Assembly: GCA_964637655.1 (NCBI GenBank)
Contig: CAZWUZ010000002.1
Location: forward strand, 1 to 46,208
DNA length: 46,208 bases
Source of the DNA: an uncultured bacterium
Lineage (GTDB): Bacteria; DAOPZR01
Direction of reading: 5' to 3'
Positions within the stretch are counted from its first letter, which is position 1. The number at the start of each line of letters is the position of its first letter. A program made the translations under genes and the position numbers. Under the pieces are notes generated by a model. It did not search any database, was not told the DNA's origin, and was given only the letters and a program-made list of their open reading frames with translations. Below, in pieces: positions 3,895 to 46,208 of the stretch.

Positions 3895-3897
3895 ACG

Positions 3898-7271: not shown

Positions 7272-8222
7272 ATGACGATGCGCTGCCCGTTGTGCAACCA
7301 CCACGCGACCCAACGCCTGACTGACCGCCTGCGCCACGGCGAACGCCGCCCGGTCTATTACTGCCCGCAATGCGAACTGGGCATGCTGCCCGAGAAGCAG
7401 GACCAGCGGAAGCTGAGGGCCTATTACGGCAGCGAGTACCGCCGGACGTTCACCCCGGTGCTGACGCAGGCGACCGACCCGGCGGCGCTCTTTGCCACCT
7501 ACGCGCCGTTCCAGGCGGAACGGCTGGCGCTGCTGCGTCCGCATCTGACGCGGCGCATGCGCCTGCTCGAGATCGGCTGTTCCGCCGGCATGTTCCTCCA
7601 CCATGTGCGCCCGCTGGTCCGCGAGGCGGTCGGGGTCGATTACGATGCGGCCTCGGCCCGCTACGCGGCACGCAAATGCCGCTGCCGCGTGCTGACCGAC
7701 TGCGCCGACGATGAGGTGCTGCGCGACGGGCCGTTTGATGCCGTCTGCCTCTTCCAGACGCTCGAGCATGTCAAGGATCCGGTGGCGTTTATGCGCATGG
7801 TCCGCCGGTTCGTGCGGCCGGGCGGCCTGGTGCATGTCGAGGTGCCCAACCTGCGCGATGCGCTGCTGCATCTGTACGACCTGCCGCGCCACCGTCAGTT
7901 CTATTTCCACCGGGCGCATCTCTGGTATTTTACGGCGCGCAGCCTGCGCCTGGTCATGCGCGCGGCCGGCTGGTCCGGCCGCATACGGTACACGCAGGAT
8001 TACAACCTGCTCAACCATCTGCACTGGGCGGACACCGACACCCCGCAGCAGGACTGCCTGGCCGGTCTCTCGGCGCCGCGCCTCCCGCTGCGTTCCACCG
8101 CGTCGGCGTCGGTTCGCCGGCAGCTGAACGCGTTCCTTGCCCGCACGGATACGGCGTACCGGCAGCTGCTGATGCGCCTGGGGATGACTGCGAACATGGC
8201 GTTTATCGGCAGGGCCCGCTGA
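7272..8222 (+). CDS. Class I SAM methyltransferase with N-terminal CxxC..CxxC
   Basis: CPLC, CPQC, LLEIGCSAG, LEHVKDP, VEVPN. Confidence 0.88.
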   Translation: MTMRCPLCNHHATQRLTDRLRHGERRPVYYCPQCELGMLPEKQDQRKLRAYYGSEYRRTFTPVLTQATDPAALFATYAPFQAERLALLRPHLTRRMRLLEIGCSAGMFLHHVRPLVREAVGVDYDAASARYAARKCRCRVLTDCADDEVLRDGPFDAVCLFQTLEHVKDPVAFMRMVRRFVRPGGLVHVEVPNLRDALLHLYDLPRHRQFYFHRAHLWYFTARSLRLVMRAAGWSGRIRYTQDYNLLNHLHWADTDTPQQDCLAGLSAPRLPLRSTASASVRRQLNAFLARTDTAYRQLLMRLGMTANMAFIGRAR

Positions 8223-8241
8223 TGCGGTGCGGACAGCACTG

Positions 8242-10029
8242 ATGAGCGGACACCTGCTCCTTGCCGCCGGCAGCATGCCGGCGGATGCCGGTGCGGACGT
8301 GTGCGTGGCGCTGACCCCCGAAGCGATGGCGGCAGCTGACGCAAACGGGCAGCCGTACACGACGCCGGAAACGTATTTCACTTACGCGGAACTGGACGGT
8401 TTCATGCGCGAGCAGGACCGCAGCGAATGGTTCTGCGCGCGCCTCGACGCGATACTGGAGGCGGCACTGCCCGAGCGTGACCGCGCGGCGCTCACCCCGG
8501 CGGTCGCGCACCGCTACTACTTCAAGCAGCTGTGCGATCCGCTATTCGTCCGGACATTCGAACTGGAACGTGTGCTGCGTGCACTCAAGCCGCAGCAGGT
8601 AACCTACCTGGCGGGGGAGGAAACGCACTCAGTGCCGCACCTGTATCACGATCCGGATGCCTACGGTTCGGCTCTCGCGGCACTTGCCGGTCCGGCGGGC
8701 ATACCGATGCGGCGTGTGGCGGCGGCGCCGGCAGCAGCAGGACCGCTACCGGCAGCCCGGAGGGAAGCCGGCTGGCGGCAGCTGCGGCGCCGCGGGCGGA
8801 AGGCGGAAGCCGCGCTGCGCTGCGCTCTGCGCAATCTGCTCAACCGGCAGCGGCAGGGAACGGTCATGACGACACCTGACTGCCGGCTCGGACCGGCAGT
8901 GCAGAAACTCGGTTACGCGCTGACGTACCTGCCGGAATGCACGGCGGCGACGATACCGTCAGCGTGGCCCGCCGCCTGGCTGCCCCTGGCGGAACTGCTG
9001 GAAGCGGTGCGTCGTGACCGTGAGATTGGCGCCTGGCTGGCCCGGGAGGCTGATCTGTTTCCGCTGCTCGCGCCGGGGTTGCGTCAGTACCTGCAACGCC
9101 TGCCGGCACTGCTCGCCTACGCGCGCGCCCTGGCGGCACAACTGACGGCGGAGCGGATCCGCGCGGTGGTGCTCGATTCGTTCAGTGCGGGCGCCGGCGA
9201 TGCGCGACCACTGGCGGCACACGCGGCGCGGCAGTGCGGCATTCCCTGCGTTTCCGCCCAGCATGGCGCTGACGGTGTGCACGCGCGCCCGTTCCAGACC
9301 CACTACCTTGAACTGCCATACGCGACCACCCATCTCGTCTGGGGGGCGCAGGTACGCGACAACCTGCAGCGTGTTTATGCCGCGACGCAGATCGCGGTGT
9401 ACGGACCGACGCACGGGCGCCTGCAGCCGCAGCCGGCGGCGCCCGGCCGGGCGCCGCTCATCGTCTGCGTGCTGCGCGATTTCCGCTACGAGCATCCGCT
9501 CTACGCGTGGGACGACCCGGCCTGGAACTACTCTGCCCGCACCTACTGGCAGTTTGCCGCCGCGCTGGCGGAACAGGTATGCCGCGGACGCGGAGAGTGC
9601 CGCGTGGTCATCAAGCTGTACCCCGCGGAACGTCCTGCCGTCGTGCGTCTGTTCCGGGAACGATACGTCACCACTGACGGGCAGGTCGCGGTGGTCAGCA
9701 GCGAGGAATCGCTCGAGCGGCTGCTCACGCAGGCCGGACTGCTGGTCTGCGACTGGCTCGGCACCCCGTTTTTCCAGGCTGCACCGCTGCCGTGTTCCAT
9801 CATCGTGCGCAGCCTGACACGGCATGACCCGGCGGCGGAACGGGCGGCACGCACGCGGGCCGCGTTTCCCGGCAGCGACGCGGAACTCGCGGCACTGCTC
9901 GACACGTACTGCCGCACCGGCAGCGTGCCGCGCGAGGGGGAAGACGACCTGTTCGTGCGCGGTTATCTCAACGGCCTGTGTTGCGACCGGCAGACGCTGG
10001 CGCGGTCCGTGCGGGGAGACGGCGCATGA
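8242..10029 (+). CDS. Large unassigned glycan-biosynthesis protein (GT-B-like)
   Basis: About 595 aa; SAQHG, LVWG, VIKLYP, LLVCDWLGTP. Start is ATG 8242 or GTG 8227. Confidence 0.6.
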   Translation: MSGHLLLAAGSMPADAGADVCVALTPEAMAAADANGQPYTTPETYFTYAELDGFMREQDRSEWFCARLDAILEAALPERDRAALTPAVAHRYYFKQLCDPLFVRTFELERVLRALKPQQVTYLAGEETHSVPHLYHDPDAYGSALAALAGPAGIPMRRVAAAPAAAGPLPAARREAGWRQLRRRGRKAEAALRCALRNLLNRQRQGTVMTTPDCRLGPAVQKLGYALTYLPECTAATIPSAWPAAWLPLAELLEAVRRDREIGAWLAREADLFPLLAPGLRQYLQRLPALLAYARALAAQLTAERIRAVVLDSFSAGAGDARPLAAHAARQCGIPCVSAQHGADGVHARPFQTHYLELPYATTHLVWGAQVRDNLQRVYAATQIAVYGPTHGRLQPQPAAPGRAPLIVCVLRDFRYEHPLYAWDDPAWNYSARTYWQFAAALAEQVCRGRGECRVVIKLYPAERPAVVRLFRERYVTTDGQVAVVSSEESLERLLTQAGLLVCDWLGTPFFQAAPLPCSIIVRSLTRHDPAAERAARTRAAFPGSDAELAALLDTYCRTGSVPREGEDDLFVRGYLNGLCCDRQTLARSVRGDGA

Positions 10030-11165
10030 ACCTTCCCTGCGACTATCCGTTCACCCACTTCGAGGTGAACCACCCCAACGGTGACGTCACCTGCTGCTGC
10101 CAGCAGACGCGGGTGCTCGGCAATATCAACCGGCAGAGCGCGACGGAGATCTGGAACGGCGAGGGGTATCGCGACATGCGGCGCCGGTTCCTTGCCGGGG
10201 ATATCCTGAGTGTCTGCCCGGGCGAATGCCCGGTGCTGCACGGCTGGAAACAGAACGAGCGGCTGGACTGGTACCGCACCCGGCCGATGTCGTCGCCCGT
10301 CAGGCGCAATGCGGAACGCAACGAGCAGGAGCAGGCGGACGGTGCGCTGCAGCTGGTGTCGCAGCCGCGCTGGCTGCGCTATGCCGCCTCCTACCGGTGC
10401 AACCTGCGCTGCTACCACTGTTTTCAGGCGCAGGACCGCACCGCGCAGGCGGAGCTGCCCGACAGTTTCTTCGCGCAGGCGCGGGCCTGGTTGCCCGCCC
10501 TGCAGATGGTCTTTCTCTACGGCGGCGAGCCGCTGCTCGAACCGCGGAACCTGGCGCTGGTGGAGGAGATCGCGGCGCAGGGGGAAGTAGAAGTGCGGCT
10601 GTCGCTGATCACCAACGCGGCAGTGCTCAGCGAAGCCTGGCGCAGTGCGCTGGCGCGGGTGCGCCCGGGCATCGTCAGCATGTCGCTCGATACGTGTGAT
10701 CCGGCGCTGTTCGCGGAACTGCACCCACCGGCACGCTGGGATACGGTGCTGGCCAACGCGCGTTTTCTCGCCGGGTGGGCGCGTGCCCGCGGCGAGACGG
10801 CATGCTTCGGCTTCACCATGAACCGGAGGAACTGCGGGGAGCTGCCGGCCTTCGTCGATTTCTGCGCGGCGGAGGGGGCACTGGCGACGTTCCAGCTGGC
10901 GCATAACGTATTTCGCGACGCGCGGTTTGCCCGCACCTACGCCCTGCACACGCGCGGTGACTTCCGCCGGCTGCTGCCCCTGCTGCAGGCGGCGCAGGCG
11001 CGGGCGCGCGCGCACGGCATGCACGAGACGGAACGCAACCTGGCGGAGTTCATCACGCAGGCGGAAAAGCGCAGCCGCTGGCAGCCGCTGCTGGCGCTGC
11101 GGCGGCGCTGGCACCGCTGGCGCCGGCAGCGCGCGGCGATACGCGCAGAGGAAGGTGACCGATGA
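10026..11165 (+). CDS. Radical SAM protein with N-terminal SPASM/twitch-like domain
   Basis: ATGA start at 10026; CDYPF..GDVTCCC..CPGEC precedes CNLRCYHC and GGEPLL. Confidence 0.85.
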   Translation: MNLPCDYPFTHFEVNHPNGDVTCCCQQTRVLGNINRQSATEIWNGEGYRDMRRRFLAGDILSVCPGECPVLHGWKQNERLDWYRTRPMSSPVRRNAERNEQEQADGALQLVSQPRWLRYAASYRCNLRCYHCFQAQDRTAQAELPDSFFAQARAWLPALQMVFLYGGEPLLEPRNLALVEEIAAQGEVEVRLSLITNAAVLSEAWRSALARVRPGIVSMSLDTCDPALFAELHPPARWDTVLANARFLAGWARARGETACFGFTMNRRNCGELPAFVDFCAAEGALATFQLAHNVFRDARFARTYALHTRGDFRRLLPLLQAAQARARAHGMHETERNLAEFITQAEKRSRWQPLLALRRRWHRWRRQRAAIRAEEGDR

Positions 11166-12202
11166 CGGCAGCAAAGGACCGGGAGGCAGTGATGCAGCGG
11201 CGGTATGCCCTGCTGCCGGCGCTGCGCGACTATGACCGCCTGACGCTGACCGGCACCCCCTACCTGATGTTTTTCAACCAGCCGGAGTTCCGCTCGGCGG
11301 CATGCACCACTGACGCACTCGGCTTCCGCTTCTCCTACGCGGGAGACACGGCTGTTGATTATGCCGGTTTCCGGGCGGCGCCCGGCCGGAAACGCGTGCT
11401 GCTGGGCGGATCGACGGCGTTCGGCATCGGGGTGAGCAGCGACCGGCTGACGCTGGCCAGCCGCCTCAACGAAACGGGAGGGCTACTGTGCTGCAACGCG
11501 GGGCTGCGCGCCGGCAACAGCACCCAGGAGCTGCTCACCTGCCTGCTGCGGTTCGCCGACATCGACGGTCTCGAGCAGATTATCATTGTCAGCGGTATCA
11601 ATGATCTCGAACTGCTGCACAGCGCACCGGTATACGGGGGGGACGGCGGCGCGTTCTACTATCAGCAGTCGTGTCCGCTGGCCGGCGCGCCGCTCGAGCA
11701 CTGGCTTTGGCTCGAACGGCCGGCGTCTGCGCTGCTGCGCGAGCGGAACTGGCAGTGGCTGCGCCGGAAGGCTGCGCACTTCCTGCGCGGGCGCACGCGC
11801 TCTCCGCGGGCGGCCGGATCACCCGACGATCTGCAGCGCCTGCTGCGGCGCAACCTCGGCGTGCTGGGCTCGTTTGCGCGGGCGCGCGGCATCGATATCA
11901 CCTACGTGCTGCAGCCGTTCGCGCTCTGGCTCGACCGCGAACTGTCACCCGAGGAAGCGGAGCTTTTTGCGTTGCTTGATGCCCTGCCGGACAACCCGCT
12001 GCGCGACCATGCGGCGGCCATGCGCCGGCAGCGCGGGACGTATACCGCGATGGTGGAGCAGGCGGCCCGGGCGGGCGGGGTGCGGTTTATCGATGCCACC
12101 GCGCACTTCAACCGGCCGGGATGGCTGTTTGCCGACCGTGTGCACCTTACTGATGACGGTACCGGGCACCTGGCGGCGCTGCTCAGCGAGGCGGGCCTGT
12201 GA
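11162..12202 (+). CDS. SGNH/GDSL hydrolase-like protein (resembles the IopA-type family)
   Basis: PYLMFF..TDALGFR, GGSTAFG, NAG, SGINDL, DRVH blocks. Confidence 0.75.
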   Translation: MTAAKDREAVMQRRYALLPALRDYDRLTLTGTPYLMFFNQPEFRSAACTTDALGFRFSYAGDTAVDYAGFRAAPGRKRVLLGGSTAFGIGVSSDRLTLASRLNETGGLLCCNAGLRAGNSTQELLTCLLRFADIDGLEQIIIVSGINDLELLHSAPVYGGDGGAFYYQQSCPLAGAPLEHWLWLERPASALLRERNWQWLRRKAAHFLRGRTRSPRAAGSPDDLQRLLRRNLGVLGSFARARGIDITYVLQPFALWLDRELSPEEAELFALLDALPDNPLRDHAAAMRRQRGTYTAMVEQAARAGGVRFIDATAHFNRPGWLFADRVHLTDDGTGHLAALLSEAGL

Positions 12203-12291
12203 GGCGCCGGCTGCGCGCGTTGTGGGCATGGCTGCGCTCGTTCTGGCAGCCCCCTGACGATCCGCCGCAGGACATCTACCCGCTGTGGTGA
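12199..12291 (+). CDS. 30-aa microprotein MRRRLRALWAWLRSFWQPPDDPPQDIYPLW
   Basis: Fills the gap exactly, with GTGA overlaps to both neighbouring genes; GAGG upstream. Confidence 0.7.
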   Translation: MRRRLRALWAWLRSFWQPPDDPPQDIYPLW

Positions 12292-13148
12292 GGCGCTGGA
12301 CCAAGATCCACCTGGCGGAGGCACCGCCGCTTCCCGCGAGCACGACCCCGGCCGAGCGCTATGCCCGGCAGATGGGCGGCTACGGGGCTGATGCCGACTG
12401 CGCCACGCCGGACACGTTCCTGCGGCGGTATTTTTCCGGGCGGCTGCAGACCTATCACCGGCTGCTGATCCGCCATCTGCGTCCGGGCATGCGGGTGCTC
12501 TGCCTCGGCAGCGGGCGCTGCGTCAATGAATTGCTGCTGGCCCGGCACGGCTGCCGGGTCACCGCCTGTGACCTCGCCTACCCGCCCTGCCTGGCACCGT
12601 TGCAGGCCGCGTGCCCGGCGCTGGAATTTCGTGCGGCGGACATCACGCGGGAACTGCCGGTCGCTGCCTGCGATGCGGTTGTCGCGCTGAGCGTGTTCTA
12701 CCATTTCCCGCCGGCGGTGCTGCGGCAGCTGGCACAGCGTATCGCGGCGGCACTCCCGCCGGGCGGCGTACTGCTCTGCGATGTCGGCGGCGCGGCGGAC
12801 AGCCTGCTGACCCGCCTGCTCGATGAGGTCGTGGTGCCGCTTGACCAGTACTGGTACCGCTATGTACGCCGCGCGCCGGGCTGGCACCTGCAGCGGGAAG
12901 TGCTCGGCTACCGCTACACGGACCGGGAAGTGACCGCGATATTCACCGCGGCCGGATTGCAGCTGCAGGACGTGCAGCGGCATGACCACCGGTCGGAGCT
13001 GTGGCGCAGCTGGTTCTGCCGCCACCGGCTGCAGGGGACGTCGCGCTGGCGGCCGCTGCTCGAACGGCTCGGGGCGCAGATGCCGTACGTGCGCCTGTTC
13101 AGATTCACACGTCCGCATGCAGCTACTCTCACGGCAGGAGCATCATGA
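12288..13148 (+). CDS. Class I SAM methyltransferase
   Basis: VLCLGSGRC, VTACDL, ADIT, LPPGGVL; the coupled GTG at 12288 is preferred over 12285. Confidence 0.82.
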   Translation: MRRWTKIHLAEAPPLPASTTPAERYARQMGGYGADADCATPDTFLRRYFSGRLQTYHRLLIRHLRPGMRVLCLGSGRCVNELLLARHGCRVTACDLAYPPCLAPLQAACPALEFRAADITRELPVAACDAVVALSVFYHFPPAVLRQLAQRIAAALPPGGVLLCDVGGAADSLLTRLLDEVVVPLDQYWYRYVRRAPGWHLQREVLGYRYTDREVTAIFTAAGLQLQDVQRHDHRSELWRSWFCRHRLQGTSRWRPLLERLGAQMPYVRLFRFTRPHAATLTAGAS

Positions 13149-14731
13149 TGCGACGAATCATTCTCTGGTCGCCGGTTTCCGACGATATGCGCCACTACCT
13201 CGCTGCCGGCGGGGCGCGCGGGCTGTTCCTGCCGCCCGTCGGGCTGCTGCTGGTTGCGCAGGAATTGGAACGCGCGGGGTTTGCGGTCACCCTGGTTGAC
13301 GGCAATTTCGATCTCGACTATCTGCCGCGCCTGGTGCAGCAGGCAGCGGCGCAGCGGGAGGAACTGGTGTTCATCGGCGCCTATCTCGCGCTGCTGCAGC
13401 TCAAGGATTTCCGGCAGGCGGCGACCGCCCTGCGCGCGGCGGCGCCGGGAGTGCCGGTGGTGGTCGGCGGGCCGTTCCCGTCGGTGTTTACCGCGGCGGC
13501 AGCGGGCAGCCCGCTCATCGACATCTGCTGCACGGGCGACGGCGCCCGGGTGGCGGTTGCCCTGGCCGGGCACCTCGCAGCCGGGCGCGACTGGCGTTCC
13601 CTCCCCAACCTGGCCTATGCCGACAGCGGACAGGTGGTGACCACGCCGCGCGAGTGGTTTGACGAGCTCACCGGTGACAATGTCGTGCAGTACGAGCGGT
13701 TCTTTCCCGTCGACGAGTACGCCCCGCATTTTTCGCTCTACCTGCCGCCGCGCGACGGGTGGCAGCGCGCGCTGCCGCTGCTCACCGGGCTCGGCTGTTC
13801 CTACAAGTGCGCGTTCTGCGAAAATGCCGTGCTCGGACACAAGCACCGCTCGCTGCCGGCGGAGGCGATTGTTGAACGGATGCGGCATTATCACGAGCGA
13901 TACGGGATCGAGGCGTTCGCCCTGTTCGACGAGGATTTCTTCATCGATCGTGCGCGCCTGCTGCGCTTCATCGAGCTGCTGGAGGCGGCCCGCCTGCCCG
14001 TGCGCTGGGGGACGCAGTGCCGGGTCAATTATTTCCGCGACGGCTATATCGACCGTGAACTGCTGCGGCGGCTGGCGGCGGTCGGCTGTGTGCGGCTGTC
14101 GATGGGCGTGGAGAGCGGCTCGCCGGCGATGCTCAAACTGCTGCGCAAGCAGATCACCCCGGAACAGGTGCTGGCCGCGGCGGACACAGGCAGCGACTCT
14201 CCGATCGTCTTCACGTTCTCGCTGATGATCGGACTGCCCGGGGAAACGCGCGCCGACCTGTTTGCCACCCTCGATCTGATGCTGCAGGCGATGCAGCGCA
14301 AGCCGAACTGCCACGTCTCCGCGGTCCATCCGTACTGGGCCTTTCCCGGCACCCCGCTCGCCCGTCTGGCGGAGGAACGCGGCGGCTACTCGGCGCAAGG
14401 GCTGTCGCTGGACGAACTAGCCGACCTGTCGCTCGAGGAATACAACCGGCGTATTCTCGGAACGTCGGATGACGCGGCGCGAATGCCGGTGCAGCACTTT
14501 CTGACCGTCATGACCATGCCGGCGCAGTACCGCTATTACCGGCACCTGTTCCGGCTGCTGGCATGGTGCGTCCAGCAGCGACGGCGCCGCGGCTGGTATA
14601 CGGGACTGGCCGACCTGTATCTGCTCTACCGGGGCAAGCAGGCATGGCATTACCTGCACAAGCAGGCCGTGCCGGCCCTGAAACAGGCGGTACGGCGGCT
14701 GCTGCGCGGTGAGCGTAAGGAGGGGGTATGA
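13145..14731 (+). CDS. B12-binding domain radical SAM protein
   Basis: GGAG plus ATGA start at 13145; PPVGL, VVVGGPFPS, GCSYKCAFC, DEDF, GVESGS, IGLPGET. Confidence 0.88.
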   Translation: MMRRIILWSPVSDDMRHYLAAGGARGLFLPPVGLLLVAQELERAGFAVTLVDGNFDLDYLPRLVQQAAAQREELVFIGAYLALLQLKDFRQAATALRAAAPGVPVVVGGPFPSVFTAAAAGSPLIDICCTGDGARVAVALAGHLAAGRDWRSLPNLAYADSGQVVTTPREWFDELTGDNVVQYERFFPVDEYAPHFSLYLPPRDGWQRALPLLTGLGCSYKCAFCENAVLGHKHRSLPAEAIVERMRHYHERYGIEAFALFDEDFFIDRARLLRFIELLEAARLPVRWGTQCRVNYFRDGYIDRELLRRLAAVGCVRLSMGVESGSPAMLKLLRKQITPEQVLAAADTGSDSPIVFTFSLMIGLPGETRADLFATLDLMLQAMQRKPNCHVSAVHPYWAFPGTPLARLAEERGGYSAQGLSLDELADLSLEEYNRRILGTSDDAARMPVQHFLTVMTMPAQYRYYRHLFRLLAWCVQQRRRRGWYTGLADLYLLYRGKQAWHYLHKQAVPALKQAVRRLLRGERKEGV

Positions 14732-15714
14732 ATACCCGGGTCAACGACAACTTTCACCATCTGGGCGGCGATGACGTGCTGCAGCGCGCGGACGCGCGTT
14801 TCCGCGAGTACCGCCGGCAATGGCAGGAAAACCCCGATACCTTCACGGTGGCGCCCTACCCGCTGTTTCTTGATATCGAGGTGACCAGCGCCTGCAACCT
14901 GCGCTGCCCGTTCTGTGCCACAACCTACCGCGGCGCGAAAATCAGCCGCGGGTTCATGACCGGAGAACTCTACCGGCGCATCATCGACGAGGGAGCGGGT
15001 CACGGGCTGTACGGCGCCAAGTTCAACATCCGCGGCGAGCCGCTGCTGCACCCGGAACTGCCGGCGTTTGTCGCCTACGCGAAGCAGCGCGGCCTGCTCG
15101 ATGTCTACTTCAATACCAATGCGCAACTGCTCGACTACGATTGCGCCCTGCGGCTGATCGATGCCGGGCTCGACCGCATCTCCGTCTCCATCGAGGGGAC
15201 GACGGCGGCGGTGTACGAGCACTACCGGCCGGGCGGGACCTTCACGCGCCTGCGGGCCAACCTCGAAGGGCTGCTGGCGGCGCGGCGGGCGCGGCAGGTG
15301 ACACATCCGCGCATACGTATCCAGTCGGTGATGATTCCCGAGCTGGCCGGGGAACTCGCCGCCTATGCCGCGTTCTGGCAGCCCTATGCCGATGAGATCG
15401 CCTACCTCGATTACAAGGAAATGAAGGAACGCCGCCGGGGCCTGGCCTGCCACTGGGCCTGTCCGCAGCTCTGGCAGCGCATGGCGGTCTGGTGGGACGG
15501 CACGGTGGTTCCGTGCAATCACGATGATGATGCGCGGCTGGCACTCGGCAACGCCGGCACCCATACCCTGCGTGAACTGTGGCACGGCGAAGCGCTGCAG
15601 CGGGTGCGGCAGCAGCACCGTGACGGCCTGGCGCACACGGTGCCGGCATGCGACGGCTGCTACCTGCGCGACAGTGAAATCAGCAAGGACGGGAACCGAT
15701 GCCAGAACCTGTGA
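14728..15714 (+). CDS. Radical SAM/SPASM(twitch) protein
   Basis: EVTSACNLRCPFC, RGEPLLHP, CPQLW..DGTVVPC..CDGC. Confidence 0.9.
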   Translation: MNTRVNDNFHHLGGDDVLQRADARFREYRRQWQENPDTFTVAPYPLFLDIEVTSACNLRCPFCATTYRGAKISRGFMTGELYRRIIDEGAGHGLYGAKFNIRGEPLLHPELPAFVAYAKQRGLLDVYFNTNAQLLDYDCALRLIDAGLDRISVSIEGTTAAVYEHYRPGGTFTRLRANLEGLLAARRARQVTHPRIRIQSVMIPELAGELAAYAAFWQPYADEIAYLDYKEMKERRRGLACHWACPQLWQRMAVWWDGTVVPCNHDDDARLALGNAGTHTLRELWHGEALQRVRQQHRDGLAHTVPACDGCYLRDSEISKDGNRCQNL

Positions 15715-16778
15715 ACCTGCCGCGCCTGCCCGCGTGGCTTGACCGCGTGGCGCGTATCGACAATGAGGCGCTCGACCGCAGCCGCTTCCTGCGCTGTGAC
15801 AAGAACGAGAACCTGCTGCCGCTGCCGCCGCGCGCGCTGGCCCGCATCCGACGGGCAATGACCGGCGATTTTCTCGGCTGCTATCCGCAACCGCACCTGC
15901 TGCTGCCGCCGCTGGCGCGCTCGCTCGGGCTCACGCCCGACCAGGTGTATCTCACCGCGGGCTCGGATGCGGGAATCAAGGCGGTGTTCGAGGTGCTGGT
16001 GCGTCCCGGCGCGCAGATCGTGCTGCCGACACCCTCATACGCGATGTACGGGGTCTATGCGCAGCTCTTCCGCGCCCGGGTGACCGCCATCGCCTGCGAT
16101 GCGCACCTGCAGCTGCCGCTGGCGGAGGTGCGCCGTGCCATCACCCGGCGGACCGCACTGGTGATTATTGCCAACCCGAACAGTCCGACCGGCACGGCGG
16201 TGGAGCGTCATGAACTGCTGCGCCTGGTGCGGTATGCCGGACGTCTCGGTGTGCCCGTACTGGTGGACGAGGCCTATTATCCGTTCCATCCCGAGACGAT
16301 GGTTCCCCACCTGCGCGCCTGTCCCAACCTGCTGGTGACGCGCACCTTTTCCAAGGCGTACGGACTGGCGGCGGCGCGGCTCGGTTGTGTCGCAGCATCG
16401 CCGCGCTTCATCGCCGCCCTGAAAAAATGGCGGCCGATGTATGAGGTGAACGGGCTGGCGGTCATCGCCGGCCTGGCCCTGCTTGCCGAACGGCGTGCCG
16501 TGGCGCGCATGGTGCGCGAGACCGTGGCAACGCGGGAATGGCTGTGCCGGCAGCTTGAGCAGGCCGGCCTGCCGGTGCTGCCGTCGGCTGCGAATTTCCT
16601 CAATGTGCGGGTCGGGCGCGAACGTGTGCCGGCAGTGCTGCAGCGCCTGCGCCGGCACGGGGTGCTGGCGAAAACATTTTCGGGACATCCGCTGCTGGCG
16701 GAATGCGTGCGCATCTCGCTCGGCCCGCGGCGCGACATGGCGCGGGTGGCGCGGTTACTGGCTGCCGGAGGAAAATAA
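15699..16778 (+). CDS. HisC/CobD-like class I/II PLP-dependent enzyme
   Basis: DKNEN, GSD, NPNSPTG, VDEAY, RTFSKAYGLAAARLG. Confidence 0.88.
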   Translation: MPEPVNLPRLPAWLDRVARIDNEALDRSRFLRCDKNENLLPLPPRALARIRRAMTGDFLGCYPQPHLLLPPLARSLGLTPDQVYLTAGSDAGIKAVFEVLVRPGAQIVLPTPSYAMYGVYAQLFRARVTAIACDAHLQLPLAEVRRAITRRTALVIIANPNSPTGTAVERHELLRLVRYAGRLGVPVLVDEAYYPFHPETMVPHLRACPNLLVTRTFSKAYGLAAARLGCVAASPRFIAALKKWRPMYEVNGLAVIAGLALLAERRAVARMVRETVATREWLCRQLEQAGLPVLPSAANFLNVRVGRERVPAVLQRLRRHGVLAKTFSGHPLLAECVRISLGPRRDMARVARLLAAGGK

Positions 16779-16780
16779 CC

Positions 16781-18271
16781 ATGAATATCCTGCTGGTGTT
16801 TCCCAACGCGGTGCTGCAGAATCCACCGCCAATGAGCATCGCGCTCTTTACCGCGCTGCTCCGGCCGCTCGGGGTCTCGCTGCACCTGTTTGACACGACA
16901 CTTTACGACACCGAGGAGCGGACGTCGGACAAGACCAAGGAGCAGCACCTGCAGGTGCGGCCGTTCAGTTTCACGGAACGCAACATCACGCTCAACACGA
17001 CCGATATGTACGAGGATTTCCGCCACTGCCTGGAGCAGGTGCAGCCCGAACTGATCGCCTTGTCGGCCAACGAGGTGACGTTTCCGACCGGCATGGAGCT
17101 GCTGCGTCGCGCCCGCGGTGATGCGGCACTGGCGCGCGCCACGGTCGTGGCAGGCGGGGTGCTGGCCACCTGCGCGCCGGAGTATGTGCTCGGACACGAG
17201 GGAATCGATGCGGTGGTGTGCGGCGAAGGAGAAGGGGCGCTTGTCGATATTGTCGGGCGGCTGCAGCGTGGCACCGGCCTGAACGGCATTGCCAATGTCC
17301 GGGTGAAGGACCGGGCCACGGGGGCGGTCACCGGCAGCCCGCTGCGCCCGCCGGTTGTGCTTGATGACCTGCCGCTCCCCGACTACAGCCTGTTCGACGA
17401 GCGGCGGTTCTACCGGCCGATGGCGGGCAGGGTCTGGCGGCTGTTTCCCGTGGAAAGCAGCCGCGGCTGCCCCTACCGCTGCACCTTCTGCAATTCGCCT
17501 TCACTCGAGGAAATGTACCGTGCCGACACCGGGCGCGGGTTCTTCCGGCGCAAATCGGTTGCCCGCCTGGAGCGCGAACTGCGCGACCTCAAGGAGAAGT
17601 ACGGTGCCGAATATATCTATTTCCTGAGCGACACGCTGCTGGCGATGTCGGACAACGAGTTTGACGAGTTCTGCCGCATGTATGCCGGCATCGGCTTGCC
17701 GTTCTGGTGCCAGAATCGCGTCGAGATGGTGACCGAACCGCGCATGCGGCGGCTGAAGGAGATCGGCTGCCACCGCATGTCGGTCGGCATCGAGCACGGC
17801 AATGAGGAATTCCGTTTCCGCATGCTCGACAAGCGCATCACGAACGCCGCCATCATCCGCGCGTTCGAGATCCTCGCGCAGGTCGGGATCCCGGCAACCG
17901 CGAACAACATCGTCGGGTTCCCCGACGAGACACGCGAACTGGCGATGGATACGGTGCGGCTGAACCGGCAGATACCGTACGATACGGTCAACGCCTACGA
18001 ATTTACCCCCTTCCGCGGCACCCCGCTGCACCGCTATTGTCTTGAGCGGGGCTATATCAGCGAGGACACGGTGCTTACCTGCATGACCAAGGGAACGGTG
18101 CTGCGCATGCCGCAGTTTCCGCCGCAGGACATTGAGGGACTGGTACGCACGTTCGCGCTCTACACCCGGCTGCCGGAGGAACGCTTCCCCGAGATCCGCC
18201 GGGCGGAAAACGATGACCGGCTCTTTGCCCGGCTGAGCGCGGAATATCAGAGGCTTCAGTTCGGCAAATGA
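16781..18271 (+). CDS. B12-binding domain radical SAM protein
   Basis: GGAGGA RBS, ATG 16781; VVAGGV, GEGE, SRGCPYRCTFC, GIEHG, VGFPDET. Confidence 0.9.
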   Translation: MNILLVFPNAVLQNPPPMSIALFTALLRPLGVSLHLFDTTLYDTEERTSDKTKEQHLQVRPFSFTERNITLNTTDMYEDFRHCLEQVQPELIALSANEVTFPTGMELLRRARGDAALARATVVAGGVLATCAPEYVLGHEGIDAVVCGEGEGALVDIVGRLQRGTGLNGIANVRVKDRATGAVTGSPLRPPVVLDDLPLPDYSLFDERRFYRPMAGRVWRLFPVESSRGCPYRCTFCNSPSLEEMYRADTGRGFFRRKSVARLERELRDLKEKYGAEYIYFLSDTLLAMSDNEFDEFCRMYAGIGLPFWCQNRVEMVTEPRMRRLKEIGCHRMSVGIEHGNEEFRFRMLDKRITNAAIIRAFEILAQVGIPATANNIVGFPDETRELAMDTVRLNRQIPYDTVNAYEFTPFRGTPLHRYCLERGYISEDTVLTCMTKGTVLRMPQFPPQDIEGLVRTFALYTRLPEERFPEIRRAENDDRLFARLSAEYQRLQFGK

Positions 18272-40355: not shown

Positions 40356-40476
40356 CGGGTTGTGTAAAAAAAGAAACACCCGCAATAAGGGAAAACACTA
40401 AGCCGATATAGCAAGGGATAGCGATTGCAAGTTGGCGCTGATAATCAGGTGTGTTGCAACAGATGCATGCAATTAT

Positions 40477-40505
40477 TTGACAGCAGAATACCGGATACAT
40501 AAAAT
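40477..40505 (+). promoter_or_regulatory. Near-consensus sigma70 promoter of the giant surface protein gene
   Basis: TTGACA (40477-40482), 17 nt, TAAAAT (40500-40505), in an AT-rich intergenic region. Confidence 0.8.
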
Positions 40506-40555
40506 AGTTGCATGTCCAATGAACAGGTTTTGACCTGACGTGTGGCCTGCCATTG

Positions 40556-43500
40556 ATGCGTCCTGAAACGGCGGGCACTGCGCGCCCGTTCGGGCTGTGG
40601 TGTACGCTGTTCTTCGTGCTCGTACTCTGCTGGGGGATTCCGGTCCCGGCCGCGGCGCTCACCTGGAGTACCGGCACGCCGCTGCCGTTCACGCTGGTCT
40701 CTGCCGCCTCGGTCAAACTGGGTGACACGCTCTACGTGGTGGCCGGTACTGCCAATGGCATTGAAACCGGGGCGGTCTGGGGCTACAGTCCCGCGCGCGG
40801 CTGGGTGTCCGGCGGCGCCTTGCCGTACACATGCAAACGTGTCGCTGCTGCCGCCTACGGCAGCGAGACCATATTCGTCGCCGGCGGCACCATCAACATC
40901 ACTGACACGGCGGCGTTCACCGCCTTCAACGTGCGCACGGGCGCGAGTGTCTCCTATACGCCGCTGCCGGCGACGCTGAGCCGCGGCGTGGCGGTGGTAT
41001 TCGGCGACACGCTCTATATCATTGGCGGCAGGTTCAATGCCAGCAGCGGCTACGATACGGTTTATTCCTACTACCTGCCGCAGGGCCCGACGGGCATGTG
41101 GCGGGAGAATGCCATTGCGCACCTCATTGACGGGCGCGAGCAGCATGTCGCGTTTGTTGCCAACAACGGCATCTACCTCGCCGGCGGCTTTCGCAGCGTC
41201 GGGGCTGCGACCGTTGGCAGTATGTACTTCTACAATTTCGGCGGCGACACGTGGCTGACCCGCCCGGCCATGCCGCAGCCGCGCGAACAGGCGGGCTGGG
41301 CGCAGACCGCCGACACGGTCTATGTCATCGCCGGCACGTCGGACGGAATTGATTCGGTCCCCACGGTCTATGCCTTCCGCCTTGCGGCCGAGGCATGGAC
41401 CACCGAAACCTCCCTGCCGGCGGCGCGCAAACTGCTTGTTGGCGGCGCGCTGGGCGACACCATCTACGCCGTCGGCGGCATGAACAGCGTTTCGCTCGCT
41501 TCGGTCGACGCTGCCGGTGTCCCGGCGCCTGCGGCCGGCTTCAGCGACGGCGGCAGCGTGACGGTCTTTGTCAGCAACCTTGGCGACAGCAGCAACCCGG
41601 TGAGCGGCGATACCACATCCGCGTTCGGCGGCATCAGCGAGGCGATGGCCGCGCTCGACCCGGCGAACGGGGTCGATACGATCATTGTCTATAGCTACTA
41701 CGATCCCGCGTCACCGGGGGATGATTCATATACGCTGACCGTTCCCGTCTATTGCGACACTGGCGTTACCCTGACTTCGTATTTCGCGCTGTACGGTCAG
41801 GACACCGGTGGTGGCGCCGATACGTGGGCGAAGATAAGTCACAACAGCGATACGACGGTGATCCGGGCCACGCCGGGCGAGAATATCACCATCCGCGGGT
41901 TCATTCTCGACGGCGGCATCGGCAAGTATACCGGCACGAACCATTATGCGCTGAGCGTTTCGCGCGGCTGCCTGATCGAACAGGTGGAGCTGTACGGTTT
42001 CTTCCGCGCCTTCTCCATCGGGGGCGGCAACACCGTCAGCCAGGTCTATTCGCACGATAATGAGGACAACGCGGTCTGGACGAATTCCGGCGCCGGGAGC
42101 ACCTCCTTCAGCAATTGCAGCTTCAGTAATGAGGGGAAGAAGGCGTTCTATTTTGTCGCCGGGGCGAGCGGTCACACGGTAAGCAATACGGTTATGGAAA
42201 ATTGCGAGGCGGGGGTCTGGGCGGTCGCCACCGCGGATAACAATTCATTCATCGGCAATTCGATTGCCGGCAGCAGCGACATCGGTATGTACATCGAAGG
42301 TGACAATAGCAGGGTCTCATCCAACCGGATCGCGGGCAATGGCGCCGGCGGTTTCGAGTTTGCCGGAACGACCACGGGCTATTTGCAGCAGAATGATATT
42401 GTCAACAATGACAGCTACGCCATTTCGCTGACCGGGACACTGAGCGGCATCGCGATCAACCGTAATAATATCGCGCCGTCAACCGCCCTGCCCGACAGCG
42501 GCATATACGCTGACGCCACTGGCAGCGATACCTTCGACCTGCTGCGCAACTACTGGCATACGACGAACGAGGATTCTATAGCCGGCTGGCTGCACGGCAG
42601 CAGCGCCGACTCCATCGCGTGGTACCCGTATCGGCTCGGCAGGGTCGACACCGCGGCGGGCGCCGACACCGTGGCGCCCGCCAGTCCGTCCGGCCTGGCG
42701 GCGGACACGTCGACGGGCGGTCAGCTTACCCTGACCTGGACCGGGGTGACGTTGAACGAGGATGGTTCGGCCTGCGCCGACCTCGCCGCCTACAACGTCT
42801 ACCGCTGTACCGCGGCCCTGGCGCCGGTGGCGGACTGGAAGGCGGTGTACCTTGGCAGTTCGCCGGATACCATGTACGTCGACACGATGGTGATGGCAGG
42901 CGTGACCTACTGCTACCGGGTAACCGCCTACGACAACCACAGCCCGTGGGAAAACGAGAGCTTCTTCAGCGACACGGTCACTGTGACCGCGGCCGCAATT
43001 GACACCTTCGGTCCGAACCAGTGGTACGTCAGCACCGCGGGTGATACCGCCAACGACGGACTGACGTGGGGGACGGCGAAACGCTACCTCGGCAACCTCC
43101 TGCGCGGGTCATGCAATCAGGCCGGCCCGATTCTCCTGACACAGGGTGACACCGTCAACCTCGGGGCGGGCACCTGGAGCGAGACAGTGAGCATCGGCAC
43201 CCACTACGTTGCGCTGGTCGGCCAGGACTCGGCAGCGACGAGTATCGATCTGCTGGACAGCAGTGCGCCGGGCAAGCCGGCCGCGATTACCGCGACCGGC
43301 GTCATCGGTGCCACCATCGCCAATCTGCAGGTGGGTAATGCCGCGTATGGCATTCTGCTCAATAACGCTGACAATGCAATGGTCAGCGCGGTCACGGTCG
43401 GAAACTGCCTGTACAACGGTGTGCGTATCTATATCGGGGCGGACAGTGCCGTACTCAGCAACTGTCACCTCGACGGCGCGGGTGAAGATGCGCTGCTGAT

Positions 43501-46208: not shown

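Follow-up and report, generated by a model that had tools for sequence, protein, structure and literature searches.

The 46,208-nucleotide stretch of DNA analyzed here (the window) ends inside a giant open reading frame (ORF). In the encoded protein, P0001, Asp is followed by Ser or Thr (D-[ST]) about three times as often as composition predicts, and this signal is specific and directional. Alignments with distant relatives indicate that the excess is an inherited hallmark of a whole giant-protein family. From the statistics, the conservation, and the sharing of motifs across taxa, we infer a mostly structural acid–hydroxyl pair, [D/E]-[S/T], a preference that falls a little short of an even chance. 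A relaxed signal for sugar attachment comes second.

Overall Organization of the Giant Protein

The frame runs on the + strand without a stop from a TTG at 40553 (ATG at 40556) to 46207. A sequence-only reading of the window had put it at 1884 codons or more; the exact length is 1,885 codons from the TTG and 1,884 from the ATG. P0001 reads as the first 1,885 residues of a giant exported through Sec, with one Kelch domain and three PbH1 beta-helices parted by two linker and FN3 modules, as follows.

40556..46207, + strand: giant ORF, N-terminal part (P0001), 1,884 codons from ATG; C-terminus beyond the window end
40556..40657, + strand: predicted Sec signal peptide, residues 2–35, cleavage after A-A-A, read from the translation by eye
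40658..41557, + strand: Kelch beta-propeller, ~residues 36–335, boundaries approximate (Pfam Kelch_1, Kelch_6; PDB Kelch matches)
41558..42637, + strand: beta-helix domain 1, N-terminal cap and PbH1 coils, ~residues 336–695, boundaries approximate (Pfam Beta_helix/NosD)
42638..42997, + strand: linker (V-D-T-A-A-G-A-D-T-V-A-P) and FN3 domain 1, ~residues 696–815 (Asp columns 699/705; alignments with Bacillus, Paenibacillus, and PDB 3mpc/5g56)
42998..44062, + strand: beta-helix domain 2, ~residues 816–1170 (best Pfam Beta_helix stretch 959–1117)
44063..44422, + strand: second linker and FN3 domain 2, ~residues 1171–1290 (54% identical to the first copy as aligned)
44423..46207, + strand: beta-helix domain 3, residues 1291–1885 and beyond (best Pfam NosD stretch 1398–1541; NCBIfam para_beta_helix)

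The N-terminus, judged by eye from the translation, has the basic n-region, hydrophobic core, and A-A-A/L cleavage site of a non-cytoplasmic protein. The propeller is matched by Pfam Kelch_1 (39.1 bits, cutoff 20.1) and Kelch_6 (26.6 bits, cutoff 25.3), and all 13 PDB matches to this part are Kelch proteins (KLHL12, KLHL3, and others; best E 7e-11). Four of its blades read G-D-T-[LI]-Y and one reads A-D-T-V-Y. The PbH1 assignment is supported by Beta_helix (280.5 bits, cutoff 25.9, 10 stretches), NosD (229.3 bits, cutoff 23.6, 8 stretches), and NCBIfam para_beta_helix TIGR03804 (40.9 bits, cutoff 19.45). Beta-helix 1 has 165 homologous domains across 74 relatives, beta-helix 2 carries the cap motifs G-D-T-A-N-D-G and G-D-T-V-N..G-T-W, and beta-helix 3 comprises ~20 PbH1 coils with D-[ST]-N at the turns and holds 25 of the 67 D-[ST] sites. 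Pfam fn3 scored 17.4 bits against a cutoff of 25; both copies nonetheless align with annotated Bacillus FN3 proteins, and a joint FN3 profile that includes Bacillus sequences matches PDB Fn3 3mpc and titin FN3. The exported, surface-type build of Kelch, beta-helix, and FN3 parts proposed from sequence alone is thus borne out by the signal peptide read by eye and the Kelch and helix Pfam matches, and for FN3 it is suggested by the alignments.

P0001 is not NosD, the nitrous-oxide reductase maturation protein, since it scores 94.6 bits against the subfamily cutoff of 300 (TIGR04247); the window is also without nos genes. Its domains suggest that the giant most likely works at the cell surface, in adhesion or in carbohydrate binding.

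Excess of Asp-Ser/Thr Pairs in P0001

Asp precedes Ser (33) or Thr (34) at 67 of its 109 occurrences, which is close to an earlier hand count of about 65 of about 110. This share of 61% stands far above the Ser+Thr content of 19.2%, as had been claimed: shuffling the residues 5,000 times gave 20.8 pairs on average (sd 4.0, maximum 36; z ~12). DT (3.3x expectation) and DS (3.1x) are the most over-represented dipeptides of the protein. The ratio for D[ST] is ~3.2 (3.21–3.23), compared with 1.15 for E[ST], 0.79 for N[ST], and 0.90 for G[ST]; A[ST] is at or below expectation. Reversed and spaced controls are depleted ([ST]D 0.67, D-x-[ST] 0.81, N-x-[ST] 0.72), and DG (0.89) and DN (1.04) are not enriched. 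The excess was expected to run alike through the Kelch, beta-helix, and FN3 parts, and it does, with ratios of 4.06 in the Kelch part, 2.5, 2.8, and 3.77 in beta-helices 1, 2, and 3, and 2.88 and 2.73 in the first and second linker/FN3 parts.

The strict Bacteroidota O-glycosylation motif, D[ST][AILMTV], occurs 36 times against 8.6 expected, and the broadened Tannerella forsythia motif 47 times against 14.0, a density of 1 site per 40 residues. These counts bring in the second reading, in which the D-[ST] pairs serve as acceptors for a general, Bacteroidota-related periplasmic O-glycosylation with a relaxed two-residue [D/E]-[S/T] sequon, which we rate as a substantial possibility below the structural one. 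Both the directionality of the excess and its restriction to an acid before Ser/Thr speak for such a sequon.

Could the excess be an artefact of composition or chance? P0001 is rich in Ser+Thr (19%) and Asn (8.8%) and poor in charge; Lys+Arg+Glu+Gln make up <8%, with Lys, Arg, and Glu scarce and Asp the chief charged residue. Its D-[ST] sites are also not independent, because the protein is made of internal repeats. However, the composition-keeping shuffles, the control dipeptides, and the column-specific null given below contradict this explanation, and the trait recurs in 105 relatives at ~30–35% identity. We reject it as having a practically negligible probability.

A cause at the DNA level is likewise ruled out. 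The sites use a variety of codons (GAC 39, GAT 28; ACG, ACC, TCG, TCC, and others), and the pattern is therefore not due to any one nucleotide word. Ser after Asp has a TCN codon in 26 of 33 cases, compared with 43% overall, and TCN is one base from the ACN codons of Thr; this preference would suit a sequon.

A Trait of a Giant-Protein Family

The D-[ST] excess is common to 105 distant relatives, giant beta-helix/FN3 proteins from metagenome-assembled genomes (MAGs) labelled Lindowbacteria, Hydrogenedentota, or unclassified ‘bacterium’; the representative genomes scanned with P0001 gave no relative. Among 150 diverse relatives, the median D[ST] was 2.31 times expectation, compared with 0.97 in a control set of 120 PBP1 homologues, and at least 61% of Asp residues precede Ser/Thr in 20 of the 150. 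P0001 lies at the high end of the family, its 3.21 being reached by 5 of the 150. Pooling of 47 family ORFs gave 2.54 (3,932 of 7,491 Asp). In the 105 family proteins the ratio was still 2.26 in regions outside any P0001-homologous envelope, a spread that fits a recognition motif as well as it fits a structural pair.

The Lindowbacteria/Hydrogenedentota-like giants (P0002–P0008, P0137–P0169, loci L001–L045) have the same module set as P0001 at 30–45% identity, namely the beta-helix cap, PbH1 coils, a linker of the form W..D-S..P-x-R-L-G..D-T..G-A-D-T-x-A-P, and FN3. There are several copies per genome, of up to 7,712 residues. The nearest relatives reach ~45% identity at most in the best-conserved module, and whole-protein matches of the exhaustive search ≤42%. 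Unlike P0001, the family generally has no Kelch region alongside the beta-helix matches, as only 2 of 105 proteins do (P0170 and P0181). The giants are annotated as ‘right-handed parallel beta-helix repeat-containing proteins’, none with a studied function.

Among 18 complete relatives, 6 have T9SS-type C-terminal matches (Por_Secre_tail/CHU_C type) at E ≤ 1e-3, of which only L010 and L045 are above the Pfam cutoff; 2 have a dockerin and 10 neither type. A PorV gene adjoins one family giant. NCBI taxonomy places Hydrogenedentota within the FCB group, and an excerpt of a 2025 review reports the glycosylation motif as enriched in non-cytoplasmic proteins of Bacteroidota, with similar enrichment in Fibrobacterota. 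Together with the predicted signal peptide of P0001, these points favor a sequon. Against it, the named relatives of the window's PBP1 are Nitrospirota, Armatimonadota, and Betaproteobacteria (41–45% identity).

The Same Folds and Motifs in Other Taxa

Equal enrichment in the same folds of other taxa had been named beforehand as the outcome that would speak against a sequon. Instead, Kelch, beta-helix, and FN3 comparators lie at 0.62–1.60. Generic Kelch proteins (n = 40) gave 1.28 (418 of 1,938 Asp), and four Firmicutes FN3 proteins gave 1.12–1.45, compared with 2.3–3.1 in the giant family. Beta-helix comparators from other taxa were few, plasmid searches at E 1e-3 giving 4 comparators in all, with ratios of 0.62–0.82 in three haloarchaeal beta-helices and 1.60 in one from Deinococcus. 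At E 1e-8, beta-helix 3 matched nothing among plasmids, and a large protein search with this domain by itself yielded 2 matches and no taxon-labelled comparator. Since the same folds in other taxa are not so enriched, fold alone gives no threefold excess. This absence favors a sequon spanning the Kelch, beta-helix, FN3, linker, and unaligned regions, and it counts against a purely structural role, as do the Kelch data: columns aligned with G-D-T-x-Y are D[ST] in merely 1–6% of Kelch homologues, and in human KLHL alignments the Asp recurs at the blade position and the Thr does not.

Individual motifs, on the other hand, do cross lineages, which goes against lineage-bound acceptor sites, several being common to Firmicutes or an archaeon. 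In four Bacillus/Paenibacillus FN3 proteins, the Asp residues of ‘G-A-D-T-x-A-P’ and ‘Y-x-D-[ST]’ are invariant and Ser/Thr follows in 3 of 4 at each; PDB Fn3 3mpc/5g56 have Y-T-D-T-G at the same column as the family Y-x-D-[ST]. One haloarchaeal beta-helix has the cap sequence P-G-E-T-I..G-T-Y, and in the haloarchaeal and Deinococcus beta-helices most D[ST] pairs stand in the same ‘x-D-S-x-x-V’ context.

Conservation and Coupling of the Paired Residues

Most P0001 sites are bound to alignment columns: 54 of 67 sit where D[ST] recurs in relatives, 20 of them in columns with D[ST] in 50% or more of relatives and 34 in columns with it in 10–50%. At variable or unaligned columns, 13 of 47 Asp residues form D[ST] (ratio 1.44, p = 0.10). 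Asp is 96–99% conserved in relatives at columns 699, 705, 777, 817, 1175, 1181, and 1248; the linker Asp is found in 98% of relatives at columns 699 and 705 and in 98–99% at columns 1175 and 1181.

Such conservation of linker Asp in both copies would suit Ca2+. The acid–hydroxyl pairs might coordinate Ca2+ or undergo some other modification, with linker Asp stiffening the joints of a long extracellular rod, although we give this only a slim chance. Ca2+-stiffened linkers are known in giant bacterial adhesins, Asp is the main charged residue of P0001, and Glu can stand in for it, as for a carboxylate ligand. However, Pfam and NCBIfam scans of P0001 gave no RTX, cadherin, or EF-hand match, neither DG nor DN is enriched, and a site would need more than a single Asp and a single hydroxyl.

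The choice of hydroxyl residue is fixed per column. Over 41 recurrent columns the minor hydroxyl residue has a median share of 0.11, and only 12 columns are mixed at 20% or more; at column 699 Thr outnumbers Ser by 226 to 4, and at column 892 Ser outnumbers Thr by 189 to 2. This conflicts with the free Ser/Thr interchange that a sequon predicts. In recurrent columns, the next residue is Ser/Thr in 77% of the rows with Glu (143 of 186) and 83% of those with Asp (4,866 of 5,878), compared with 28% of those with Asn; wherever Asn or another residue replaces the acid, Ser/Thr falls to ~26–28%. Glu thus substitutes fully in this conservation test, which is not an enzymatic one, whereas in the Bacteroidota system, according to an excerpt of the 2025 review, Glu is not tolerated in B. 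fragilis and is rare elsewhere.

The same review gives L/I/V/T/A/S as ~90% of third residues in Bacteroidota and N/E/Q/P/D as <1% each. A comparable preference is absent from the family, where the third residue is near background: L/I/V/T/A/S account for 54.7% against a background of 49.5%, N/E/Q/P/D for 20%, and Leu is depleted (0.65). At variable columns, L/I/V/T/A/S make up 44.4%, compared with 44.5% for the same columns, and Asn is the commonest third residue (22%), as it is in P0001 (14 of 67).

In favor of a sequon, acid and hydroxyl co-occur at variable columns 2,038 times against 1,266 predicted from column composition, i.e., 1.6-fold, and a column-specific null still left 1.56–1.61; eight control dipeptides gave 0.69–1.10 in the same test. 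The two residues are thus gained and lost jointly. This favors a recognition motif, yet it would fit a structural pair equally.

Genomic Context and Other Exported Proteins

Carbohydrate genes precede the giant gene in the window.

158..26243, + strand: nonulosonate/surface-carbohydrate gene cluster (NeuB at 3052–3894, and Pfam families)
38431–39432, + strand: cytidylyltransferase gene directly upstream (Pfam CTP_transf_3, 80.9 bits)
39378–40355, + strand: PseG-like gene directly upstream (NCBIfam PseG 64.5 bits, under the cutoff of 153.55; no Pfam match even at E 0.05)
40477..40505, + strand: sigma-70-like promoter match (TTGACA, 17 nt, TAAAAT; 11/12 consensus) in a 200-bp AT-rich gap upstream of the giant gene

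The cluster contains NeuB, four CTP_transf_3 genes, five radical-SAM genes, methyltransferases, aminotransferases, and epimerases. Its weak matches to the Leptospira-type surface-carbohydrate families TIGR04326/04331/04396 are all under cutoff; its unassigned genes resemble, if weakly, surface-polysaccharide families rather than protein-glycosylation genes, which counts against the acceptor-site reading. The promoter scan of 38300–40800 found 2 sites against 0.1 expected from shuffles. By its match to the consensus, the giant gene has a promoter-like site of its own, another point against that reading.

The sequence-only reading had the protein coated with the nonulosonate glycan encoded nearby. 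The Pse-like genes abut the giant gene, but the link to the nonulosonate cluster is one of adjacency only, and the giant gene starts after the 200-bp gap with its own promoter-like site. A scan of 44 window ORFs (E ≤ 1e-5) gave no flippase, Wzy_C/PglL-type O-antigen-ligase, STT3, PMT, or GT-C domain, and the oligosaccharyltransferase search that the sequence-only reading had called for thus ended without a candidate in the window. Relaxed scans of six unassigned window ORFs gave weak GT-B or capsule-like hints and nothing stronger. Near the family giants, GT-C membrane glycosyltransferases occur in 3 of 45 close loci (PMT_2 in L007 and L032; DUF2079 in L038), a point in favor of glycosylation. 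Because the transferase and ligase of the Bacteroidota system are themselves still undiscovered, according to an excerpt of the 2025 review, a cognate transferase is beyond homology search.

A general sequon should also enrich other exported proteins, and the samples available, small and short of a whole genome, do not bear this out. Of the 104 Asp residues in the window's five remaining exported proteins, 7 precede Ser/Thr (ratio 0.7; 3 strict motifs). Neighbors in related MAGs had per-protein medians of 0.96 with a signal peptide (n = 22) and 0.82 without (p = 0.18). Pooled, they differ (71 of 349 vs. 79 of 802 Asp; Fisher p = 2.5e-6), a difference that is not counted as support because few proteins drive it and the medians agree. 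Signal-peptide proteins in 11 distant loci, 9 with FCB-type names, gave 1.05 overall.

Structural Pair or Acceptor Site

In the structural reading, [D/E]-[S/T] pairs would mark the points at which turns lead into beta-strands. In the beta-helices these are the caps and the PbH1 turn that precedes the Asn ladder; the others are the linker from helix to FN3, the strands of FN3, and the blade strand of the Kelch part. The carboxylate and the neighboring hydroxyl would form a cap that makes the turn more rigid, Ca2+ possibly being bound by the two Asp residues that are invariant in the linker, and the many internal repeats of P0001 would multiply the number of pairs. A structural origin is consistent with a family trait of column-bound sites, fixed Ser or Thr, equivalence of Glu and Asp, motif classes found outside the lineage, indifference to the third residue, and unenriched exported proteins. 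The unenriched folds elsewhere, the rarity of G-D-T-x-Y in Kelch homologues, and the KLHL blades speak against it, and the variable-column coupling would suit a recognition motif just as well. To our knowledge, no structural motif of the form [D/E]-[S/T] has been described for all three folds.

What stands of the proposed Bacteroidetes-like sequon is that the excess is real, that it is specific to the family when the same folds elsewhere are compared, and that T. forsythia offers a precedent. Five predictions of such a sequon fail, namely those on the third residue, strict Asp, Ser/Thr interchange, lineage-bound sites, and enrichment in other exported proteins. If the pairs were nevertheless acceptor sites, a substantial possibility though second in rank, dozens of turn positions would be modified before export, probably via T9SS, as in the T. 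forsythia S-layer, and the glycan might include the neighboring nonulosonate. In its boldest form, the proposal is that a relaxed [D/E]-[S/T] sequon operates outside Bacteroidota and has been packed by evolution into every tolerant turn of Lindowbacteria/Hydrogenedentota-like T9SS-type giants with dozens of glycans each; glycosylation at these sites in this sense is rather unlikely. Addition of a modified nonulosonate from the neighboring genes as the glycan cap makes the proposal improbable.

A literature search found no paper on either reading, sequon or structural pair, for Lindowbacteria/Hydrogenedentota-like lineages. As a sequon, the two- to threefold, acid-specific, directional D-[ST] excess of this large family would be the strongest hint to date, at the level of sequence, of a Bacteroidota-type system beyond Bacteroidota, in uncultured lineages of which NCBI files one in the FCB group. 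The family would offer a dense natural site set for working out the enzyme rules, and its pattern of sites, combined with the GT-C/TPR genes next to certain giants, could lead to the undiscovered O-oligosaccharyltransferase. A structural pair would represent an undescribed capping motif common to beta-helix, FN3, and Kelch modules, and a warning that a single repeat-protein family can drive motif-enrichment scans for glycosylation.

Comparison with Known Systems

Bacterial Fn3 domains (PDB 3mpc and 5g56; Bacillus/Paenibacillus plasmid FN3 proteins L057–L060) share 31–36% identity with the P0001 FN3 and have two motifs in common with it; one, D-[ST]-x-[AS]-P, precedes strand A, and the other, Y-x-D-[ST], precedes the Y-x-Y-x-V strand. 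The third FN3 site of P0001 (F-S-D-[ST]) and the upstream V-D-T are absent from the Bacillus/Paenibacillus proteins. The PbH1 coils of NosD (PDB 7o0y), AlgG (PDB 4ozz and 4nk8), and AlgE4 (PDB 2pyg) align to the family profile with E values of 4.5e-13 to 2.8e-5. Unlike P0001, these solved proteins are single-domain, with ~380–490 residues, and their equivalent turn reads s-x-N-N or D-N-S, not D-[ST].

In an excerpt of the 2025 review, general O-glycosylation of Bacteroidota is described as the one type of bacterial O-glycosylation for which use of a sequence motif is known, its reach into sister phyla is posed as a question, and some T. forsythia strains are said to have the pseudaminic acid of the glycan swapped for legionaminic acid. 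An excerpt of the T. forsythia study (PMC8550257) presents T9SS cargo as the main D-S/T O-glycoprotein class, with 120 of 312 sites in 18 proteins, and reports 19 of 20 predicted sites occupied in TfsB and DSL/DTL as the most frequent sites. As far as that excerpt describes them, TfsA, TfsB, and the T9SS cargo resemble P0001 as large exported surface-type proteins with many D-[ST] sites, and this precedent argues for a sequon. Like that cargo, P0001, known here from its sequence, is exported, has 36 strict and 47 broadened motifs with nonulosonate genes alongside, and has relatives with T9SS-type tails. At a length of ~1,360 residues, TfsB would have ~1 site per 68 residues, compared with 1 per 40 in P0001. 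The P0001 family differs from the T. forsythia system in that its D-[ST] sites have no third-residue preference, with Asn frequent and Leu depleted, and in that Glu is equivalent to Asp.

Domain organization of the giant protein

The open frame proposed from the sequence alone was confirmed: it starts at TTG 40553 (ATG 40556) on the + strand and stays open over 1,885 codons, as far as the window reaches, and it was overlooked by the ORF track because it has no stop there. The first 35 residues of its product, P0001 (1,884 codons from ATG 40556), look like a Sec signal peptide when the translation is judged by eye. Pfam searches detected Kelch repeats at the N-terminus, right-handed β-helix and NosD-type PbH1 repeats over most of the remainder (10 and 8 stretches), and a sub-threshold fn3 match. 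The parts were delimited by comparison with relatives, and their boundaries are approximate.

Parts of P0001 (residues)
About 36–335: Kelch
336–695: β-helix 1
696–815: linker and FN3, first copy
816–1170: β-helix 2
1171–1290: linker and FN3, second copy
1291 to past 1885: β-helix 3, running beyond the window

The G+C content of the giant gene is 0.57–0.64, down from 0.65–0.72 across most of the window. An AT-rich gap of 200 bp, which contains a sigma-70-like promoter match (11/12), parts it from two upstream genes. Within 40356–40552, no obvious Shine-Dalgarno sequence was seen by eye ahead of ATG 40556, and the strong −35/−10 match lies 50 bp upstream. Farther upstream are genes of PASTA, NHL, PBP1, RodZ-like and beta-lactamase-like types; beyond them come a transposase and, last, the nonulosonate cluster of 26 kb.

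Features upstream of the giant gene
158–26243 (+): nonulosonate/surface-sugar cluster, unusually elaborate
30029–31459 (−): transposase ORF (DDE_Tnp_1/DUF772), with the sugar cluster on one side and the cell-wall genes on the other
31737–35867: class A beta-lactamase-family gene (Beta-lactamase2, 230 bits), adjoining a RodZ-like HTH_25/TPR gene and a bifunctional PBP1
37539–38687: PASTA-repeat protein
From 38431: cytidylyltransferase gene (CTP_transf_3 type), just upstream of the giant gene
Directly upstream of the giant gene: PseG-like gene, score under the NCBIfam cutoff

The transposase ORF coincides with a local G+C dip (0.61 in the 2-kb bin at 30–32 kb). The PASTA-repeat ORF aligns only to the extracellular part (model positions 301–562) of a PknB-type kinase model and contains no kinase domain; the annotated start of the following gene falls within it, which leaves the start codons in this region uncertain.

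Excess of Asp-Ser/Thr pairs

An earlier hand count of roughly 65 Asp-Ser/Thr pairs among about 110 Asp residues was close: Ser (33) or Thr (34) follows 67 of the 109 Asp in P0001. Shuffling gave an expectation of 20.8 (sd 4.0) with a maximum of 36 in 5,000 shuffles, and chance or composition is excluded as the source. No dipeptides in the protein are more over-represented than DT and DS, and the signal is specific, with ratios of observed to expected counts of 1.15 for E[ST], 0.79 for N[ST], 0.90 for G[ST], 0.67 for [ST]D, 0.81 for D-x-[ST] and 0.72 for N-x-[ST]. As had also been claimed, the Kelch, β-helix and FN3 parts share the excess, at 2.5 to 4.1 times expectation per domain. A nucleotide word as the cause is out, since the codons are mixed; TCN codons account for 26 of the 33 Ser following Asp, versus 43% of Ser overall. 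Elsewhere in the window, the D[ST] ratio is 1.2 in 30 cytoplasmic-type proteins (57 of 555 Asp) and 0.7 in the five other exported proteins (7 of 104 Asp). Within the window, the trait is peculiar to the giant protein.

Relatives of P0001

No close relative of P0001 was found in the collections searched, and the best whole-protein matches share about 30–35% identity. An exhaustive protein search returned 9,291 sequences at E ≤ 1e-3, with 141 at E ≤ 1e-30. Among the best 150 of the 9,291, the median D[ST] ratio was 2.31 and the distribution was bimodal, β-helix/FN3 relatives lying at about 2.3–3.1 and Kelch-only proteins at about 0.5–1.4. Ser/Thr follows at least 61% of Asp in 20 of these 150, and five equal or pass the 3.21 of P0001. 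The median of a control set of 120 PBP1 homologues was 0.97. The few named relatives of the window's own PBP1 belong to Nitrospirota, Armatimonadota and Betaproteobacteria (41–45% identity).

A scan of representative genomes with the module alignment yielded 56 loci, 45 close and 11 distant ones at the FN3 level, with taxon labels taken from record titles. Nine of the 11 distant loci bear names that we take to be of the FCB group (Neomarinimicrobiota, Melioribacteraceae, Bacteroides, Bacteroidota, Salinibacter, Salinivenus and Gemmatimonadetes). The close loci are labelled Lindowbacteria (seven, two MAGs), Hydrogenedentota (three, two MAGs), Dependentiae (five, one MAG) or only "bacterium" (30), and family genes occur in several copies per genome. 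Hydrogenedentota, the sole lineage looked up for FCB membership, is placed in that group by NCBI; the position of the candidate phylum Lindowbacteria is uncertain. In the 47 family ORFs of the close loci, 3,932 of 7,491 Asp precede Ser/Thr (2.54). In the 80,486 residues that lie beyond the P0001-homologous envelopes of 105 family proteins, the ratio was still 2.26 (2,642 of 5,912 Asp), part of which may come from divergent repeats. Among 18 family ORFs that are complete at the 3′ end, a T9SS-type sorting domain was matched in six (E ≤ 1e-3; two above Pfam cutoffs), a dockerin in two and neither in ten, and PorV is a neighbour at one locus. The sorting-domain matches and the PorV neighbour indicate that the relatives are exported surface proteins, some of them probably T9SS cargo.

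Comparison with the same folds in other taxa

The sequence-only reading had raised the alternative that homologous folds of non-glycosylating taxa carry an equal excess. Taken as whole proteins, they do not. Kelch regions of 40 unrelated proteins gave 1.28 (418 of 1,938 Asp), versus 3.31 (18 of 29) in the two Kelch-bearing family proteins. Whole-protein ratios were 1.12–1.45 for four Firmicutes FN3 proteins and, in a β-helix comparison resting on four proteins, 0.62–0.82 for three haloarchaeal proteins and 1.60 for one from Deinococcus.

Individual motifs are nevertheless common to these taxa. Four Bacillus/Paenibacillus FN3 proteins all keep the Asp of D-[ST]-x-[AS]-P and that of Y-x-D-[ST], and Ser/Thr comes next in three of the four at each; the Fn3 structures 3mpc and 5g56 have Y-T-D-T-G at the latter column, and titin FN3 has no Asp there. 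One haloarchaeal β-helix has the cap P-G-E-T-I..G-T-Y, and most D[ST] pairs of haloarchaeal and Deinococcus β-helices lie in an x-D-S-x-x-V coil context, as in the family. The fold thus accounts partly for the excess. Outside the family, the closest FN3 relatives are small proteins of two FN3 domains, encoded on Bacillus/Paenibacillus plasmids (loci L057–L060) in a conserved row with genes for a "low copy number virion structural protein", PA14, discoidin and LamG; the row resembles structural modules of prophage or phage-plasmid type.

Within the family, Asp is kept in 98–99% of relatives at P0001 columns 699, 705, 817, 1175 and 1181, with D[ST] in 87–96%; columns 866, 892 and 1337 have D[ST] in 85–86%. 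All 20 of the P0001 Asp (of 109) in columns with D[ST] in ≥50% of relatives are followed by Ser/Thr, as are 34 of the 42 in 10–50% columns and 13 of the 47 in variable or unaligned columns (1.44, p = 0.10). Asp 794 and Asp 1265 (window about 42932 and 44345), in the FN3 motif A-Y-D-N-H-S, are 97–98% conserved and the next residue is freely S/N/T/A; thus, not every invariant Asp belongs to an acid-hydroxyl pair.

Nonulosonate cluster and candidate glycosyltransferases

The cluster contains NeuB, four CTP_transf_3 cytidylyltransferases (the fifth begins at 38431), five radical-SAM proteins (two B12-binding, three with SPASM), two methyltransferases, two aminotransferases, two GDSL proteins, one deacetylase and epimerases. 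Three large ORFs (451, 600 and 564 aa) weakly match Leptospira-type surface-carbohydrate families, all under cutoff.

The proposal that this cluster supplies a glycan for the giant protein is the weakest part of the sequence-only reading. It draws on adjacency: pse-like genes lie directly upstream of the giant gene, and the large cluster ends 14 kb off. The giant gene, however, has its own promoter-like site, and a transposase and unrelated cell-wall genes separate it from the cluster. Flippase, PglL/Wzy_C, STT3 and GT-C domains are missing from the 44 window ORFs scanned, and the cluster's unknown genes weakly resemble surface-polysaccharide families. We consider the link improbable.

In related MAGs, membrane GT-C-type genes stand beside family giants, namely PMT_2 genes at L007:229-2016 and L032:256-2148 (one TPR-fused) and a DUF2079 gene at L038:9321-10751 with GT2 and methyltransferase genes nearby. 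These are possible protein-glycosylating enzymes. D[ST] is also enriched in the L032 PMT_2 protein itself, at 2.42 times the expected count.

Structural pair or glycosylation sequon

With expected counts computed per column pair (Asp at j, Ser/Thr at j+1), Asp and Ser/Thr co-occur at 1.61 times expectation in variable columns (2,038 vs 1,266) and 1.56 times in intermediate ones, against 0.69–1.10 for eight control dipeptides at variable columns; generic Kelch alignments showed no such coupling (0.90–1.02). This excess over the controls argues that the pair is selected as a unit. At 41 recurrent columns, Ser/Thr is next in 83% of rows with Asp, 77% with Glu, 28% with Asn and 17–32% with other residues. 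Judging from these alignments, the conserved unit is an acid-hydroxyl pair, the hydroxyl disappearing along with the acid.

Over the whole family, 54.7% of third residues are L/I/V/T/A/S (background 49.5%); Leu is depleted (0.65), and N/E/Q/P/D reach 20%. In variable columns, the L/I/V/T/A/S share is 44.4% with the pair and 44.5% in rows without it, with Asn commonest (22%). The choice of Ser or Thr is fixed by column (median minor share 0.11; 12 of 41 columns mix at ≥20%). Among non-family neighbours in related MAGs, with signal peptides called by a crude hydrophobicity rule, the median ratio was 0.96 for signal-peptide-like proteins versus 0.82 for the others (p = 0.18), and ratios of at least 2 occurred in 7 of 22 and 7 of 44, respectively. 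Signal-peptide proteins of the 11 distant loci, mostly with FCB-type names, gave 1.05 overall. Small DUF11-like or cohesin-like proteins and a membrane glycosyltransferase of PMT_2/TPR type are among the high outliers of the non-family neighbours. Small non-family exported proteins at L029:3071-4153 (14 of 20 Asp), L030:10948-11784 (9 of 19) and L038:2376-3893 (14 of 32), with weak DUF11-like Pfam matches or none, suggest that the trait may extend past the β-helix family.

Our tentative preference, held at a little under even chances, is that most of the excess reflects a structural acid-hydroxyl pair at turn-to-strand junctions, because a third-residue preference is absent, Ser and Thr are column-fixed, other exported and distant-locus proteins are unenriched, Glu is equivalent to Asp, and motifs are common to other phyla. 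Such a pair would have been inherited by a repeat-rich family and then multiplied through repetition. The same five features weigh against a relaxed O-glycosylation sequon. Yet coupling as a unit is expected of a short recognition motif, the hydroxyl is co-lost with the acid, and the lineage specificity, export and T9SS context fit as well. To our knowledge, no other mechanism produces in exported proteins an excess that is directional, specific to an acidic residue and spread across folds, and a relaxed sequon therefore remains a serious rival, possible though doubtful. That part of the sites serves Ca2+ binding or another modification is very unlikely. The structural and glycosylation readings are compatible, since acceptor sites could have been derived from structural turn motifs.

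The precedent of T. forsythia strengthens the glycosylation reading: 18 of its T9SS cargo proteins bear 120 of 312 sites, and 19 of 20 sites of TfsB are occupied. Its most frequent sites are DSL and DTL. Cross-glycosylation of foreign motifs is reported for B. fragilis and T. forsythia. Unlike the family, the Bacteroidota glycoproteomes described in a review (PMC12871550) have about 90% L/I/V/T/A/S as third residue and under 1% each of N/E/Q/P/D. In the solved β-helices NosD, AlgG and AlgE4, the coil turn is s-x-N-N or D-N-S.
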